This document shows positions 3,019 to 10,459 of a stretch of DNA of 13,226 bases, one piece after another. The number at the start of each line of letters is the position of its first letter. Position 1 is the stretch's first letter. Source of the stretch: a virus (Duplodnaviria; Heunggongvirae; Uroviricota; Caudoviricetes); IMG/VR virus record IMGVR_UViG_2563366869_000004, one strand, 5' to 3'. Made by a program: the position numbers and the translations under genes. Below the pieces are notes generated by a model. It did no database searches. It was not told where the DNA came from and saw only the letters and a list, made by a program, of their open reading frames with translations.

Positions 3019-3600
3019 TTACCCTATAGGTGCTACTGGCCATTCAATATCCGGTGCAGTTGTTGTATTAACACGGTTCAGCAACACCCGATACTTCTTC
3101 CAGGCTTCCAGCAACGAGATTTCTTCCTCCGTTGCAATTTCCAGATCTGCAGCATCCTGAAGCGGCGCAATATGCTCACTGGCTACCTGCATCAGGTTGT
3201 TTTTTGTTTCTTCCGCCTCCCGGATCCGGAACAGTTTTTCTGCTTCCGTATCCTTCACCCAGGCTGTGCCGTTCCACTTCTGATATTCCCCTTCCGGCGA
3301 TAACCAGGTGACATTTTCCGGTAACGAGCCAAGTTCAGAAATAAATAACGCGTCGCCGGAAGCCACGTCATAGACGGTTTTTCCCCGATGATCTTCAACG
3401 AGATGCCACGATGCCTCATCACTGTTGAAAACAGCCACAAAGCCAGCCGGAATATCTGGCGGTGCAATATCGGTACTGTTTGCTGGCAGACCTGTATGAG
3501 GCGGAATATATGCGTCACCTTCACCAATAAATTCATTAGTTCCGGCCAGCAGATTATAAATTTTTATGGTCCGTGGTTGTTCACTCATTCTGAATGCCAT
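3019..3600 (-). CDS. tfa: Tail fibre assembly protein Tfa (lambda Tfa-like)
   Basis: 193-aa ORF beginning [48 protein letters not shown], which matches lambda Tfa as I remember it; ends ...IEWPVAPIG. Its ATG overlaps the stop of the upstream stf ORF (TAATG arrangement at 3598-3602). Confidence 0.9.
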
Positions 3601-5297: not shown

Positions 5298-5562
5298 GGC
5301 GGAGAATCTCCCGGTATTCGATTACGGTTTTTTCGGTGCTGGTGTCGATCAGGGAGTTAAGACTGTTGGCATGTTCTGCAACCTGATTGAATCGATTGAA
5401 GTTGAATGCCTGGGTGGCGATTACCTGCCCCAGCATAGAGTTGTCACTTCGCAGAACGTCGTTATCGCTCTGAAGATTACTGGCGTAAGAGCAACTCTTG
5501 ACGAGAGCGACCGAAAGGCCAGCAATAACGACAACGCCTATAAGATCCGGATTAATTTTCAT
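5239..5562 (-). CDS. Rz-like i-spanin (inner-membrane spanin component)
   Basis: ATG at 5560-5562 overlaps the endolysin TGA (ATGA overlap). 107 aa with an N-terminal TM segment ([15 protein letters not shown]) followed by a hydrophilic, probably coiled region; position immediately after the endolysin fits a spanin. The longer six-frame ORF (to 5655) would overlap the endolysin in another frame and is not preferred. Confidence 0.55.
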
Positions 5563-6101
5563 TGCTCCAGCCCCCAGCACGCCAGTGCGCTTTCCTGATC
5601 GCGCCGCTCGACCTGCCCATAACAGCCATTCTTCTGCCCTTTTGTCAGGCGGCAATCACGCCCACCATCTTTTATCCACCAGCGAATCGCCTCGCATGCC
5701 CCCTTACGATCATCGGCATTCAGCCGCTTATAAAACGTCGACGGGAAACACTTACCGGGGCCAATGTTATAGGGACAAAATGACGCTATACCCGCTTTCT
5801 GTGGTTCGGTCAGTGGCACTTTAATATTGCGCTCCACCCATGCCAGCGCCTTATCCCGTTCAATGGCGTTAACCTGGTCGCATTTTTCCTTCGACAGTTT
5901 CATACCGGGAAAAACGGGTTTTCCATCCACCACCGTGGCACCCCGACAGATGGTCCAGATGCCGGAACCATCGCGGTATGCCGTTGTGTGGTTACCTTCT
6001 TTTTCATTCAGAAACTGGTCGAGAATATCAGGCGCAGGCGCACCGACGGCAATCAGTGCCAGAACGGCAGCCGACAGGCCGTATCTGATTTTTACGTTCA
6101 T
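5559..6101 (-). CDS. SAR endolysin (T4-lysozyme-like, GH24)
   Basis: 180-aa ORF, ATG at 6099-6101. N-terminal hydrophobic, Gly/Ala-rich signal-anchor-release-type segment (LSAAVLALIAVGAPAP) followed by the lysozyme catalytic motif E-x8-D-x5-T (EGNHTTAYRDGSGIWTICRGAT). Weak SD. Confidence 0.9.
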   Translation of the reverse strand: MNVKIRYGLSAAVLALIAVGAPAPDILDQFLNEKEGNHTTAYRDGSGIWTICRGATVVDGKPVFPGMKLSKEKCDQVNAIERDKALAWVERNIKVPLTEPQKAGIASFCPYNIGPGKCFPSTFYKRLNADDRKGACEAIRWWIKDGGRDCRLTKGQKNGCYGQVERRDQESALACWGLEQ

Positions 6102-6793: not shown

Positions 6794-7009
6794 TTACTCT
6801 CCCCGTGCAGCCTTACGCTTGTCTTCTTTAATCTTGAAATAAAGGTTTGTCAGGTACGTCAGCAGGCCAAATACCAGGCTACCCAGCACACCTATTGCTG
6901 CCCACTGTGAGGGCGTGACTTTATCGAGCAGCTGTAAAAACCAGTAGCCAGCACTGCCTGCGGAGGTGCCGTAGGCAATGCCTGTTGAAATTTTGTCCAT
7001 GGATTTCAT
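6794..7009 (-). CDS. Phage 21 S-type pinholin with dual-start motif
   Basis: 71-aa [74 protein letters not shown], close to S21 as I remember it. Met1-Lys2-Ser3-Met4 dual start (ATG at 7007-7009 and 6998-7000). Strong SD GGAGGTGA upstream. The six-frame ORF extends to 7066 but the RBS supports 7009. Confidence 0.9.
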
Positions 7010-7260: not shown

Positions 7261-7656
7261 CTAACCTCGCATGTCAAAGCCAGATTTCTGAAAATCTCTG
7301 TAGACTTCCGGATTGTTGAAGGCCGGAAATTTGGCTTTATGAGCTGCGGACTTTATCGCTTCGCAATAGGCTTTATCACCGTTACTGGTAGATATTTTTA
7401 ACGCCGTGCCATCCTGAGAGAATTCCATATGCAACCTGCATTTTTTCCCTTTCCAGTTATGCGGCTCATCAAGTTTGGCATTAATTGCAGCTCTGATTCC
7501 CCGCGCTTGCGCCCCCCATTCATCCTGATCATCCCAGCGTCCTGAACTGCAACTACCTGTAGCAGTAGTTTTGTGGCAATCTGAAGGGTGTAAAGGTGTG
7601 CATCCCGCAACAAAACCGACCCAAAAAGTCAACATAACGATTTTCTTTAATCCCAC
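7261..7656 (-). CDS. Lipoprotein with divergent TolA C-terminal (domain III)-like domain, paralog of the upstream gene
   Basis: GTG at 7656 preceded by GAGGAG at 6 nt; TAG at 7261-7263. Signal peptide MGLKKIVMLTFWVGFVAGC with lipobox VAGC and Thr at +2. C-terminus KKCRLHMEFSQDGTALKISTSNGDKAYCEAIKSAAHKAKFPAFNNPEVYRDFQKSGFDM aligns with the upstream paralog and with the TolA domain III C-terminus, both Cys conserved. Confidence 0.75.
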   Translation of the reverse strand: MGLKKIVMLTFWVGFVAGCTPLHPSDCHKTTATGSCSSGRWDDQDEWGAQARGIRAAINAKLDEPHNWKGKKCRLHMEFSQDGTALKISTSNGDKAYCEAIKSAAHKAKFPAFNNPEVYRDFQKSGFDMRG

Positions 7657-7806: not shown

Positions 7807-8235
7807 TCAGGGTTTAAAATCCAGCACCCCATTTTGAAATACTTTATATACTTCCGGCGAAGGGGGGGCAGGTATATCAGCATTCTTTATCGCATTCATC
7901 GCTTCACGACATAAATCGAGGTCTCCACTTTCTCTTTTAACCTCCAGTAGAAGGCCATTCGGGGCCATATGCATTCTCAGTGTACACTCTTTTCCTGAAT
8001 ACTTACTCGCATCCCCGAACTGTTTTTCGATGGCGCTCTTGATTTGATGGGCATACAGACGGATATCCTCACTAACATCAGAAGTACGTTCAGATGAACT
8101 CACATACTGTGTCTCTATTGCTTTATCGGAGTAATATGATGTACGGTCATGATAATTTGTCGATACAGCATCAGTGCACCCGATAATAATCCCACTAATA
8201 ATCAACGTAAGAATTGATGCGCTACGAAAACCCAT
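7807..8235 (-). CDS. Lipoprotein with TolA C-terminal (domain III)-like domain
   Basis: ATG at 8233-8235 preceded by GAGGA at about 5 nt. Signal peptide MGFRSASILTLIISGIIIGC with lipobox IIGC and Thr at +2. C-terminal 85 aa YAHQIKSAIEKQFGDASKYSGKECTLRMHMAPNGLLLEVKRESGDLDLCREAMNAIKNADIPAPPSPEVYKVFQNGVLDFKP matches the end of E. coli TolA as I remember it (YAGQIKSAIESKFYDASSYAGKTCTLRIKLAPDGMLLDIKPEGGDPALCQAALAAAKLAKIPKPPSQAVYEVFKNAPLDFKP), including both Cys and the terminal LDFKP. Confidence 0.85.
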   Translation of the reverse strand: MGFRSASILTLIISGIIIGCTDAVSTNYHDRTSYYSDKAIETQYVSSSERTSDVSEDIRLYAHQIKSAIEKQFGDASKYSGKECTLRMHMAPNGLLLEVKRESGDLDLCREAMNAIKNADIPAPPSPEVYKVFQNGVLDFKP

Positions 8236-8294: not shown

Positions 8295-8768
8295 ACAGCG
8301 AATCAGATCAAATAAAACGCACATTTGTTAACATTTACACAAAGTCTGCGTGGGATATTCTGAAAGAATATCCATAATGTGGAGAGAATCTATTGAAGTG
8401 CATGGTGCCGGGGGCCTCCCGGTGAATTCAGTACCAGCACCTGAATCCACGATTATCCCATATACCTACTCGCTGATTGCCCCTCCGCACAGGGGGATTC
8501 ACCATGCCAGTTTCTTTTAACAAACTCCCCGCAAACCAGAGAACAGTCAACCGCCTGAATTGTGAAGTATTTAAAAATTTCTCCCGCTAACTGATACCCG
8601 GCTAACAGTCTGGCGTTTTCTTTTTCAGCAACGGGAAAGCAACAACTACCACACCCGCCACCAGCACACCGTCAGCCAGCACTGACATTATCCGGCTGCT
8701 GCAATGCCATTCACAAAAACAGTAAGCAATCACTTTTTACCGTAACAGGTGATAATCCAGATATGTAT

Positions 8769-9122
8769 CTACCCCAGATGAGTAATCCGAAGTTCATCCA
8801 TACCACAGGTCCTGGCTATTCTGTTGTACTCCTGAACAAGAGCAAATAATTCTGAATTAGCAACCATGAACTCATCGCAAACCCTCTGTATAGCATCACT
8901 ATTCAGAATAATAACGTCTCTTCCCGAAAGACGATCAGGAGCACAGAACAAAACTGTCAAACGGCTGAAGGCCTTTGCTCGTGCTGCATTGACTATATCA
9001 ATACGCTGCCTAAGGATGAAACACCCCGACGCCTCATCAATATTCACTCTACCCACACCATATGAATGATAAATATTTAATGCTGAAAAAACCATTAGAC
9101 CGTATAACAAACACTCAATCAA
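8769..9122 (-). CDS. Hypothetical ORF (117 codons) of doubtful coding status
   Basis: Largest ORF between the tRNAs and the lipoprotein genes, same strand as the late operon. Starts with TTG; first in-frame ATG at 9093-9095; no convincing SD; no recognisable motif. Confidence 0.25.
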   Translation of the reverse strand: MIECLLYGLMVFSALNIYHSYGVGRVNIDEASGCFILRQRIDIVNAARAKAFSRLTVLFCAPDRLSGRDVIILNSDAIQRVCDEFMVANSELFALVQEYNRIARTCGMDELRITHLG

Positions 9123-9232: not shown

Positions 9233-9309
9233 TGGCGCGCTGTACTGGATTCGAACCAGTGACCGATTGCTTAGAAGGCAATTGCTCTGTCCGGCTGAGC
9301 TAACAACGC
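9233..9309 (-). tRNA. tRNA-Arg (anticodon UCU), phage-borne
   Basis: Minus-sense 77 nt folds as a cloverleaf: acceptor GCGTTGT/ACAGCGC (one G-U), D-arm GCTC-AGCCGGACA-GAGC, anticodon stem-loop ATTGC-CTTCTAA-GCAAT (UCU at 34-36), 5-nt variable loop, T-arm ACTGG-TTCGAAT-CCAGT, discriminator G, CCA encoded. Confidence 0.9.
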
Positions 9310-9339
9310 TGAATACCGATAATGGACCGCCATCGGGGA

Positions 9340-9357
9340 CCCCCCCCCCCCCCCCCC
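9340..9357. repeat. Homopolymeric C18 tract (G18 in the late transcript) between the two tRNA genes
   Basis: Direct count: one C at 9340 plus 17 C at 9341-9357, flanked by ggggac on the left and gca on the right. Confidence 0.9.
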
Positions 9358-9418
9358 GCACCAACAACCCTGTTATCGTGTCGTCTGCTCTTCCTGATAA
9401 GCTCATGGCGGTTTGTGA

Positions 9419-9494
9419 TGGTGGCCCTTGCTGGATTTGAACCAGCGACCTGGCGATTATGAGTCGCTCGCTCTCACCACTGAGCTAAAGGACC
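9419..9494 (-). tRNA. tRNA with CAU anticodon; closest to tRNA-Ile2 (lysidine, ileX-like), elongator Met not excluded
   Basis: Minus-sense 76 nt GGTCCTTTAGCTCAGTGGTGAGAGCGAGCGACTCATAATCGCCAGGTCGCTGGTTCAAATCCAGCAAGGGCCACCA. Acceptor GGTCCTT/AAGGGCC (one G-U), anticodon loop CTCATAA, T-loop TTCAAAT, CCA encoded. Strong resemblance to E. coli ileX as I recall it. Confidence 0.9.
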
Positions 9495-9530
9495 GGGAGC
9501 AGAATAATAACGGTCCGTAATTAATTCCGC

Positions 9531-9557
9531 AATAAAAAACCCGCTCGGTGGCGGGTT
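9531..9557 (-). terminator. tR'-like intrinsic terminator just downstream of the Q gene
   Basis: Minus-sense RNA stem AACCCGC / GCGGGUU with loop CACCGA, followed by UUUUUUAUU (plus-strand A-run 9534-9539). It sits between the pR'-like promoter and the first tRNA, as tR' does in lambdoid phages. Confidence 0.55.
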
Positions 9558-9604
9558 GTAGAAACTCTTCTAACGTCAGGTATAAAAAGCCCATCTTTAT
9601 GACG

Positions 9605-9632
9605 AATTTACCACAGATTCCGGAAAAATCAA
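9605..9632 (-). promoter_or_regulatory. pR'-like late promoter (putative Q-utilisation region)
   Basis: Minus-sense TTGATT (-35, plus 9627-9632), 16-nt spacer, TAAATT (-10, plus 9605-9610), immediately 3' of the Q-like gene stop (9638) and about 40 nt upstream of the terminator hairpin. TAAATT is the -10 I recall for lambda pR'. Confidence 0.45.
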
Positions 9633-9637
9633 CCTTG

Positions 9638-10459
9638 TTACCTAGTTACCTTTTTTAACTGCCGCTCAGCCCATGCTTCTTCAATATCAAACCGGGTCAC
9701 CAGCGCATCATAGAATTTCTTAACTGTTTTTTCCCATGACGCGCGTGTTATCTGGTTTGTCACCTCGCATATAGCATTAAATGCCTCCGTTGATGGTAGT
9801 CTTTCATAGCCACGACCACCACAACGCTGGCAGTCTCTGATAACAGGCATACCACGTTTTACCGACTCTTCACGGTGAATGGCGACACCACGCCCACGGC
9901 AATCCTTACAGGCGGTGGAAACCTCACCCTTTCCGCCACACTCCGGACAGGCAACTTTTACCACCTCCCTGACTTTTTTCCATTCTTCCCAGTAAGACGG
10001 ATACACACCTTTCGTACACTTTGCCCATACCGGCGGCTTACCATCCGGATACTGGACCTTGTTTGTAAAAACTACGCTTTCAATAAATTTTTCCCCATAG
10101 CAACAAGGGCACTGCTTTTTACTCGCTGCGCTGCGGGCATAATCCTCAAAAGCGTACGAAGCCATAATGCGCATCACTAACGGTTTTATTTCTGCCGGAA
10201 GTTTTCTCAACGCCGCCACACGATCGCACCGACTGAGTGCATAATCTGCCAGTAATTCTGTTGCCCGCGCCCTGTCATTCATACTGATGCCCATTTTCCC
10301 CAGGAACGCAGAAAACCCCATCTCAGCCCGATTCTGTGTCATGCCCTGCGCGGCCATCACATCAGTGATACTCAGCGCATCTTTTGACGTTGAGGCCGAT
10401 GCATCGGTCAGGCAAGGGGATTTTGGGGAGTAGTATTTCGGTAAATCTTCCAGTTTCAT
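9638..10459 (-). CDS. Q-like late antiterminator candidate (QuuQ-like) with cysteine-rich repeats
   Basis: 273-aa ORF whose ATG (10457-10459) overlaps the rusA stop (ATGA). It sits between rusA and the pR'/tR' pair, the canonical Q slot. Contains CPCCYGEK, CPECGGKG, CKDCRGRG and CQRCGGRG repeats. The Q call is by position and size; I could not confirm it by sequence. Confidence 0.6.
   Translation of the reverse strand: MKLEDLPKYYSPKSPCLTDASASTSKDALSITDVMAAQGMTQNRAEMGFSAFLGKMGISMNDRARATELLADYALSRCDRVAALRKLPAEIKPLVMRIMASYAFEDYARSAASKKQCPCCYGEKFIESVVFTNKVQYPDGKPPVWAKCTKGVYPSYWEEWKKVREVVKVACPECGGKGEVSTACKDCRGRGVAIHREESVKRGMPVIRDCQRCGGRGYERLPSTEAFNAICEVTNQITRASWEKTVKKFYDALVTRFDIEEAWAERQLKKVTR

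Follow-up and report, generated by a model that had tools for sequence, protein, structure and literature searches.

The window, by which we mean the whole 13,226-nt stretch of DNA that was analyzed, is a piece of the E. coli chromosome, ~100% identical end to end to GPEC1240 and 99.9% identical to many strains. According to RefSeq annotation it holds the gutted remains of a Qin-like lambdoid prophage, located at the Qin site with a truncated ydfJ on one side and rspB on the other. The upstream part of the prophage comprises an integrase (plus strand), fragments of xis and of a DUF968 gene, RusA and then the gene of the antiterminator Q. The downstream part, on the minus strand, holds DUF3927, two genes with a TolA C-terminal domain, the holin essD, ydfR and the lysozyme rrrQ, and the prophage ends in tail-fibre fragments and tfaQ. 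Two tRNA genes lie on the late strand between Q with its late promoter and the lysis cassette, among the following features.

9638-10459, minus strand: gene of the Q antiterminator, 273 aa (Pfam PF03589, E 2.6e-55)
9590-9632, minus strand: pR'-like late promoter, assigned by likeness to lambda pR'
9531-9557, minus strand: tR'-like intrinsic terminator, found by terminator scan (AACCCGCCACCGAGCGGGTT then TTTTTTATT)
9495-9532, minus strand: candidate promoter of the tRNA array, with a geometry conserved across upstream families
9419-9494, minus strand: tRNA-Ile2 (CAU), homologue of ileZ (ARAGORN; Rfam 69.4 bits)
9323-9411, minus strand: pseudo-argN, a decayed tRNA-Arg(UCG), delineated by alignment with intact argN
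9233-9309, minus strand: tRNA-Arg (UCU), homologue of argO (ARAGORN; Rfam 68.0 bits)
8769-9095, minus strand: 108-aa ORF of phrog_2873, function unknown (full-length PHROG match, E 2e-69)
8602-8733, minus strand: DUF3927/TciB-like small membrane protein, a moron (Pfam PF13064, E 1.7e-27)
7807-8235, minus strand: lipoprotein with a TolA C-terminal domain, lipobox IIGC (PF06519, E 2.4e-23; phrog_5772)
7261-7656, minus strand: second lipoprotein with a TolA C-terminal domain, lipobox VAGC (PF06519, E 1.3e-14; phrog_5772)
6794-7009, minus strand: holin
5559-6101, minus strand: lysozyme

The first gene after the tRNAs is thus the phrog_2873 ORF, which lacks a PGAP annotation; in 21 related loci it is 98-100% identical, intact and free of internal stops. 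It is followed by the DUF3927 protein, a member of phrog_1470 (described as 'TciB-like inhibition of cell division or resistance to colicin'). The lipoprotein cargo that a first-pass annotation of this DNA had placed behind the tRNAs is indeed present, in the form of the two PF06519 proteins, both with a signal peptide and a lipobox as read from the translations.

The same annotation had described two phage-borne tRNAs with complete cloverleaves and an encoded CCA at 9233-9494. Congruent with this, ARAGORN calls two tRNA genes, and no more, across all 13,226 nt; they are on the minus strand and have the same ends, and Rfam assigns both to the tRNA family RF00005 (gathering score 29) with E-values of 2e-13 for the UCU and 9e-14 for the CAU tRNA. 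Reading the stems from the sequence, we found the acceptor, D, anticodon and T arms complete in both, with an anticodon loop of 7 nt, the T-loop TTCRAAT, and CCA encoded after the discriminator, A73 for the CAU and G73 for the Arg species. Pairing imperfections are limited to U4.G69 in tRNA-Arg(UCU), and to U3.G70 and A27xC43 in the CAU tRNA. Of the latter two, A27xC43 is common to all ~120 sampled phage copies of ileZ, and U3, which creates a wobble pair seen in only 2/122 sampled copies, is the sole change from the dominant phage allele (1/76 nt). Minimum free energy folding of the single tRNAs returned no cloverleaf (z = -3.5 and -1.6), as is usual for unmodified tRNA sequences. This is no argument against either tRNA, as the appropriate tests are ARAGORN and the covariance model. 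The two genes are thus real, and their tRNAs structurally intact.

We then considered which amino acids they would be expected to carry. Aligned to the K-12 tRNAs, the CAU tRNA resembles ileY and ileX closely but metT and metZ poorly, and in place of the U4 and A5 of metT (the tRNA-Met type U4-A69/A5-U68) it carries the pairs C4-G69 and C5-G68. A73, A37, A38, U12-A23 and C29-G41, which we take to be IleRS identity elements, are likewise present, as read from the sequence, placing it among the Ile2 tRNAs. RefSeq/PGAP labels it tRNA-Ile, and curated phage records give tRNA-Ile or ileZ. The major identity elements of E. coli TilS are the pairs 4:69 and 5:68, and the pair 3:70 is common to E. coli tRNA-Met and tRNA-Ile2 (PMC11947777). 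Thus, the U3.G70 of the window copy affects no known TilS determinant. By its grouping with ileX and ileY, on top of the Rfam and ARAGORN support for the tRNA call itself, the CAU species is Ile2 of the lysidine type and not Met, as had been proposed at first pass. An elongator or initiator tRNA-Met, as in the ARAGORN label, which derives from the anticodon alone, and as in some phage records, has a practically negligible probability given the nearness to ileX/ileY rather than metT/metZ, the C4-G69/C5-G68 pairs (PMC11947777 for their role) and the tRNA-Ile or ileZ assignments by PGAP and curated phage records.

The window argO differs from argO of Stx2a_WGPS8 at one base (1/77 nt) and, as an allele, ranks second in frequency among 100 sampled copies, its anticodon loop CUUCUAA being that of K-12 argU. 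A20, C35, U36 and G73 were read from the sequence, with the A directly after G18G19 in the D loop AGCCGGACA, in keeping with a tRNA-Arg(UCU); A20, C35 and a purine discriminator are presumably ArgRS identity elements. In anticodons and identity features the window tRNAs are therefore like K-12 ileX/ileY and argU. In overall sequence, ileX and ileY are close to the window ileZ, whereas the likeness between argO and argU is much lower than that between ileZ and ileY. Unlike the K-12 genes, moreover, the window copies are prophage-borne and in tandem, with a tRNA pseudogene in between.

This pseudogene lies in the 109-nt spacer that separates the two tRNAs. Alignment with three-tRNA modules, using the intact argN of Stx2a_WGPS8 and of E. 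coli AVS0655 as references, identifies the spacer as a decayed argN. It preserves an acceptor stem and D arm, but ~29 scrambled bases stand where the anticodon arm should be, and the T loop, bereft of TTC, has given way to a G tract. The scrambled anticodon-arm allele is also found in phiP27, in mEp460_ev081 and at ~24 IMG/VR loci. A functional but odd tRNA was considered for the spacer and rejected: ARAGORN makes no call here, 28 nt rather than 23 separate the D and T arms, and there is neither a 7-nt anticodon loop nor a T loop with TTC. The G tract itself is hypervariable and has grown longer in the lineage of the window. Most phages have G5CG3, near-identical E. coli strains have G12 to G16 followed by CG3, and the window has an uninterrupted G18 at 9340-9357, while both flanking tRNAs are identical across the strains that vary in tract length. 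The length differences could in part be homopolymer sequencing error. The spacer is thus the relic of a tRNA gene, and the homopolymer within it is unstable or, at the least, prone to assembly error. The first-pass annotation had compared the locus with the ileZ-argN-argO arrangement of Stx phages. The homology holds, with 1-nt differences from annotated ileZ and argO and a like order and position; the argN gene between the two tRNAs had however been overlooked, and with its decay the window represents a two-tRNA variant rather than a module of three functional tRNAs.

The closest relatives show how the module is assembled elsewhere. Escherichia phage mEp460_ev081 (LR597641) is 96.5% identical to the window over 451 nt and shares the ileZ, decayed argN and argO as well as Q and the TolA-domain and DUF3927 genes. 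In phiP27 (NC_003356) the ~315-nt tRNA segment is 88.9% identical to the window, and ileZ and argO, both annotated, flank a decayed argN; the tRNAs there have a DNA methyltransferase in front, in place of Q, and stx2e behind. Both phages have the same scrambled anticodon arm as the window, but with a tract of G4-G5 instead of G18. The same ~315-nt segment is ~85% identical to many Stx2 phages with annotated ileZ, argN and argO. Stx2a_WGPS8 (NC_049944, 933W type) agrees with the window in order and strand, running from Q/pR' through cargo to lysis, and has the same promoter-like motif before ileZ. It differs in that the Q of 933W-type Stx phages has 144 aa, compared with the 273-aa lambda type of the window, in that the window has a tR' just 37 nt before ileZ, and in cargo, which is stxAB in the Stx2a_WGPS8 type and phrog_2873, DUF3927 and TolA-domain lipoproteins in the window.

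Among complete E. coli genomes, the 276-nt tRNA region has a match in 3061/5426 and is covered to at least 80% in 2578/5426, many genomes holding several copies. A scan of IMG/VR seeded with a 37-mer of ileZ yielded 125 usable loci, 61 with Ile-Arg(UCG)-Arg(UCU) arrays, 34 with Ile-Arg(UCU) as in the window, and ~17 with Ile-Lys-Thr-Gly or similar arrays; the type of Q upstream varies across the sampled loci. A scan of genome contigs with the argO core found three species representatives only, all Escherichia or a MAG, and so tells nothing more of the spread beyond this. Transfer RNA genes just past Q are common in lambdoid phages (PMC3636060), and the legend to Fig. 5 of PMC3491183 likewise places tRNAs downstream of Q in lambdoid phages. 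Judged by homology, then, the pair is a well-known and widespread rare-codon tRNA module of Stx and non-Stx lambdoid phages. With the module in about half of the complete E. coli genomes, and both tRNAs already annotated by RefSeq (as tRNA-Ile and tRNA-Arg), it is an ordinary find.

Codon usage agrees with the decoding expected of the two tRNAs. The twelve prophage genes of the window (2573 codons) have 11.7 ATA, 12.0 AGA and 5.4 AGG per 1000, counted with the integrase one base off frame (in frame it has 7 ATA, 11 AGA and 4 AGG, which leaves the picture unchanged), compared with 4.1, 1.2 and 0 per 1000 in twelve flanking host genes (3209 codons). The rare codons are thus 3- to 10-fold commoner in the prophage genes (Fisher p = 1e-3 for ATA, 9e-8 for AGA and 1e-5 for AGG), whereas CGA shows no enrichment over the flanking host genes. 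In the four genes directly behind the tRNAs the frequencies are 21, 16 and 9 per 1000 for ATA, AGA and AGG, on counts that are few (428 codons), and the phrog_2873 ORF has three of each, or 9/109 codons. With prophage and cargo genes both exceeding the neighboring host genes in AUA, AGA and AGG, the first-pass notion of cargo genes rich in these codons is borne out. A fit of the tRNAs to this particular cargo is not: in the sampled loci the same module stands before Stx, IraM, DUF3927 or TolA-domain lipoproteins, or is followed by the holin directly. Enrichment of AT-rich rare codons is moreover general in horizontally acquired DNA. Considering this and the unrelated cargos, the link is to phage genes generally rather than to the cargo found here.

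The retention of intact tRNAs in a gutted prophage had also been taken as a sign of selection, a view that our comparisons neither bore out nor refuted. Among the 815 genomes that carry the 1.8-kb Q-tRNA region at a coverage of at least 80%, the closest strains are 99.8-99.9% identical over this region, so that there is no power to detect selection between them. In the family of modules with this Q and DUF3927, comprising 9 distinct sequences, pi was 0.003 for ileZ (half fixed by the search seed), 0.011 for pseudo-argN, 0.017 for argO, 0.022 for the tRNA promoter and 0.050 for the pR'/tR' region; the pseudogene is thus no more diverged than argO. These values invite a neutral reading, where the tRNAs are intact merely through the youth of the remnant or its spread by recombination and bring the host no measurable benefit. 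The near-identity of the closest strains implies little time for decay, a dead gene is conserved to the same degree as a live one, and at some loci elsewhere argO has been lost or copies are altered in the T loop or anticodon loop. We regard such a neutral relic as possible but rather doubtful, since ileZ and argO hardly vary between phages that are just 85-89% identical in their module regions, a pattern that fits purifying selection in the phage population. Also at odds with it are the few host genes for these tRNAs (ileX, ileY and argU in K-12) and the richness of the downstream genes in matching codons.

Next, we turned to how the tRNAs may be transcribed. The Q product matches the lambda Q chains 7ubm/4mo1 (E 1e-40) and belongs to PHROG 127, anti-termination protein Q-like (RefSeq: 'antitermination protein'); the gene is intact and of the lambda-Q type, with an internal insertion of ~65 aa. 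Just 3' of it, the pR'-like promoter has a -35 element TTGATT (9632-9627), a 16-nt spacer ending in TGG and a -10 element TAAATT (9610-9605), followed by a -10-like element AAAGAT at 9598-9593 and then GGG. The window thus reads TAAATT-N6-AAAGATGGG where lambda pR' reads TAAATT-N6-AACGATGGG. In lambda, the second -10-like element causes a sigma-dependent pause, which is the site of Q loading. Two other phages or prophages that share this Q have an identical segment; the promoter scan left the pR'-like site uncalled, at 8/12 matches and below threshold. Further downstream, the strong tR'-like terminator has a 7-bp stem with 5 G-C pairs and a T tract, is kept in relatives with changes confined to the loop, and lies with its T tract 37 nt from ileZ.

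The layout is consequently that of lambda, with a promoter 3' of Q, a -10-like pause element and then an intrinsic terminator. Q is homologous, the -10 TAAATT and the 6-nt gap to the second element are the same, and an intrinsic terminator likewise lies downstream of pR' in lambda. The terminated leader would however be ~65 nt, compared with 194 nt in lambda, the -35/-10 spacer, where Q binds in lambda, is unrelated in sequence, and the ~65-aa insertion has no counterpart in lambda Q. With the lambda-like TAAATT-N6 element and the terminator call, the pR'/tR'-like pair of the first-pass annotation is well founded, as is the location of the tRNAs on the late strand behind it and the Q gene, and the likeness to lambda suggests that 9590-9632 functions as a pR'.

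A second promoter-like pair was recognized between this terminator and ileZ, the T tract of tR' running straight into it. It consists of a -35 element TTGCGG (9532-9527, 3/6 consensus positions), a 17-nt spacer and a -10 element TATTAT (9509-9504), and a 9-nt GC-rich stretch, TCTGCTCCC, leads from TATTAT to G1 of ileZ. The promoter scan did not call this site either (8/12 matches, below threshold). The TTGCnn-17-TATTAT-9 nt geometry is nevertheless held in 12 diverged upstream families (>10/60 positions different, behind different genes), where a different Q, a methyltransferase or another module precedes the same pair; these families share common ancestry, so that conservation of the pair among them counts as non-independent observations. 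In an offset scan, the mean was 7.67/12 consensus matches at offset 9, compared with 4.38 +/- 0.74 over all offsets. A similar close coupling is found on the chromosome, where the -10 hexamers of K-12 ileX and ileY lie 8-10 nt before G1.

The first-pass annotation had placed the tRNAs on the late strand directly after the pR'/tR'-like pair, and a strict model built on this position would make them purely late, produced by Q-dependent read-through of tR' from pR' and silent in the uninduced remnant. It has in its favor the intact Q gene, the lambda-like pR' and the position of ileZ on the late strand, so close behind the terminator T tract. We nonetheless consider it unlikely. That the promoter-like pair keeps its distance to G1, whatever lies upstream, points to tRNAs that are probably independent of pR' and Q, and the chromosomal ileX and ileY have a like close-coupled geometry. 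The conserved arrangement leads us to propose a sigma-70 promoter belonging to the array itself, which would act independently of Q.

One might go further and see the module as an autonomous expression cassette that serves the host and is not an accessory of the late genes. On its separate parts, a stringent-type promoter adjoining tR' may make the tRNAs constitutively; the same transcript may enter the phrog_2873 ORF and the colicin-/TolA-related cargo, given that no terminator follows argO (the terminator scan found none between argO and a weak site at 8933-8915); the G12 to G18 tract may alter processing or read-through; and the tract may thereby tune argO and cargo output strain by strain. 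As a joint reading of all these parts we hold it to be very improbable.

Also very improbable is that the tRNAs act in counter-defence, replacing host tRNAs cut by anticodon nucleases or tRNA-targeting toxins, rather than compensating codon usage. Colicin D cuts tRNA-Arg, and tRNA spare parts against tRNA cleavage are a concept from other phages. That the arrays occupying this slot differ in content (with Lys, Thr and Gly at ~17/125 loci) and that the nearby cargo is colicin-related by annotation (TciB-like, TolA C-terminal domain) would suit such a role. The anticodon loop of argO is however that of argU and so gives no sign of an escape variant, the codon enrichment already accounts for the choice of Ile2 and Arg(UCU), and we know of no nuclease in this tRNA-module context.

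Taken together, the locus is very probably a standard lambdoid tRNA module that decodes rare codons of phage and cargo and has its own promoter. In it, ileZ, the pseudogene argN and argO occupy the variable moron slot between Q-pR'/tR' and the lysis cassette of a gutted Qin-like prophage inserted at ydfJ of E. coli. The host TilS would turn C34 of the CAU tRNA into lysidine, so that AUA is read, and the UCU tRNA would read AGA and, by wobble, weakly AGG. As these codons are rare in the host and 3- to 10-fold commoner in the prophage genes, the module would add decoding capacity for phage and cargo mRNAs. Transcription would start from the sigma-70 promoter directly past tR', with the GC-rich stretch before the mature 5' end, and the tRNAs would thus be made in the lysogen and in the remnant without Q antitermination. 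Upon induction, Q-modified transcription from pR' would top up their output.

As a discovery the pair carries little weight, as it is annotated in RefSeq and the module has been described for Stx phages and phiP27. What is added here is a decayed argN whose G tract is unstable, a probable promoter dedicated to the tRNAs, and an unannotated, rare-codon-rich ORF. For annotators and readers, the CAU tRNA of such modules should be labeled Ile2, not Met. If the candidate promoter is real, uninduced cells may receive additional AUA- and AGA-decoding tRNAs from prophage remnants, and this could affect acquired AT-rich genes, including the toxin genes that occupy the slot in Stx phages.

The array of tRNA genes behind ileZ, the phage tRNA-Ile2(CAU) gene, is itself modular, since the tRNAs that follow it vary among the 125 IMG/VR loci with classed arrays: in approximately 17 of these Lys(UUU)-Thr(UGU)-Gly(UCC) replace the Arg tRNAs after the same ileZ, and in two Lys(UUU) occupies the argN position. 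The window carries at this position a decayed tRNA-Arg(UCG), pseudo-argN, with the following tract:

9340-9357, minus strand, G18 homopolymer inside pseudo-argN (9323-9411)

The T arm of the decayed argN gave rise to this tract, which is merely G4-G6 in related phages and an uninterrupted G18 in the window. Its length differs between strains otherwise 99.9% identical (G12-G16, then CG3). Either the site is a hotspot for slippage, or an assembly error recurs here.

Downstream of argO, the tRNA-Arg(UCU) gene, an additional reading frame was recovered:

8769-9095, minus strand, 108-aa ORF directly after argO, phrog_2873, absent from the RefSeq annotation

The match to phrog_2873, a family of unknown function, is full-length, and the ORF is intact in 21 related loci, with ATA, AGA and AGG together comprising about 8% of its codons. 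No clear Shine-Dalgarno sequence was found upstream of it.

Further along the late strand, a pair of lipoprotein genes was found, and Rfam returned two RNA matches:

8346-8536, minus strand, STnc100 sRNA family match (110 bits, gathering score 47)
7807-8235, minus strand, first lipoprotein with TolA C-terminal domain (PF06519, phrog_5772)
7261-7656, minus strand, second lipoprotein with TolA C-terminal domain (PF06519, phrog_5772)
3059-3257, minus strand, 'IS009' match (225 bits)

The STnc100 match falls in the interval that separates the first TolA-domain gene from DUF3927, where the PGAP annotation instead has a small pseudo-ORF on the plus strand. The 'IS009' match is located wholly within the coding sequence of the tail-fibre assembly gene tfaQ (3019-3600), and hence is most likely due to conservation of the coding sequence and not to a distinct RNA gene. 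The two lipoproteins are paralogues, each composed of a lipobox signal peptide and the TolA domain, and are adjoined by a TciB-like DUF3927 gene (8602-8733). PGAP labels the first as a 5'-truncated pseudogene, despite the presence of a full 142-aa ORF with lipobox, equal in length to the gene annotated 'TolA protein' in the Escherichia phage mEp460_ev081. The pair could act as decoys that divert TolA-dependent colicins or filamentous phages.

Finally, the region upstream of phage ileZ was compared with that of a chromosomal gene:

NC_000913.3 2785762-2785837, chromosomal, K-12 ileY

The ileY upstream sequence (TTATTGCGT..., with a -10 element TATTGC 8 nt before G1) resembles the putative promoter region of phage ileZ (TTATTGCGG..., TATTAT). 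This resemblance suggests that ileY itself may be descended from a prophage tRNA module.
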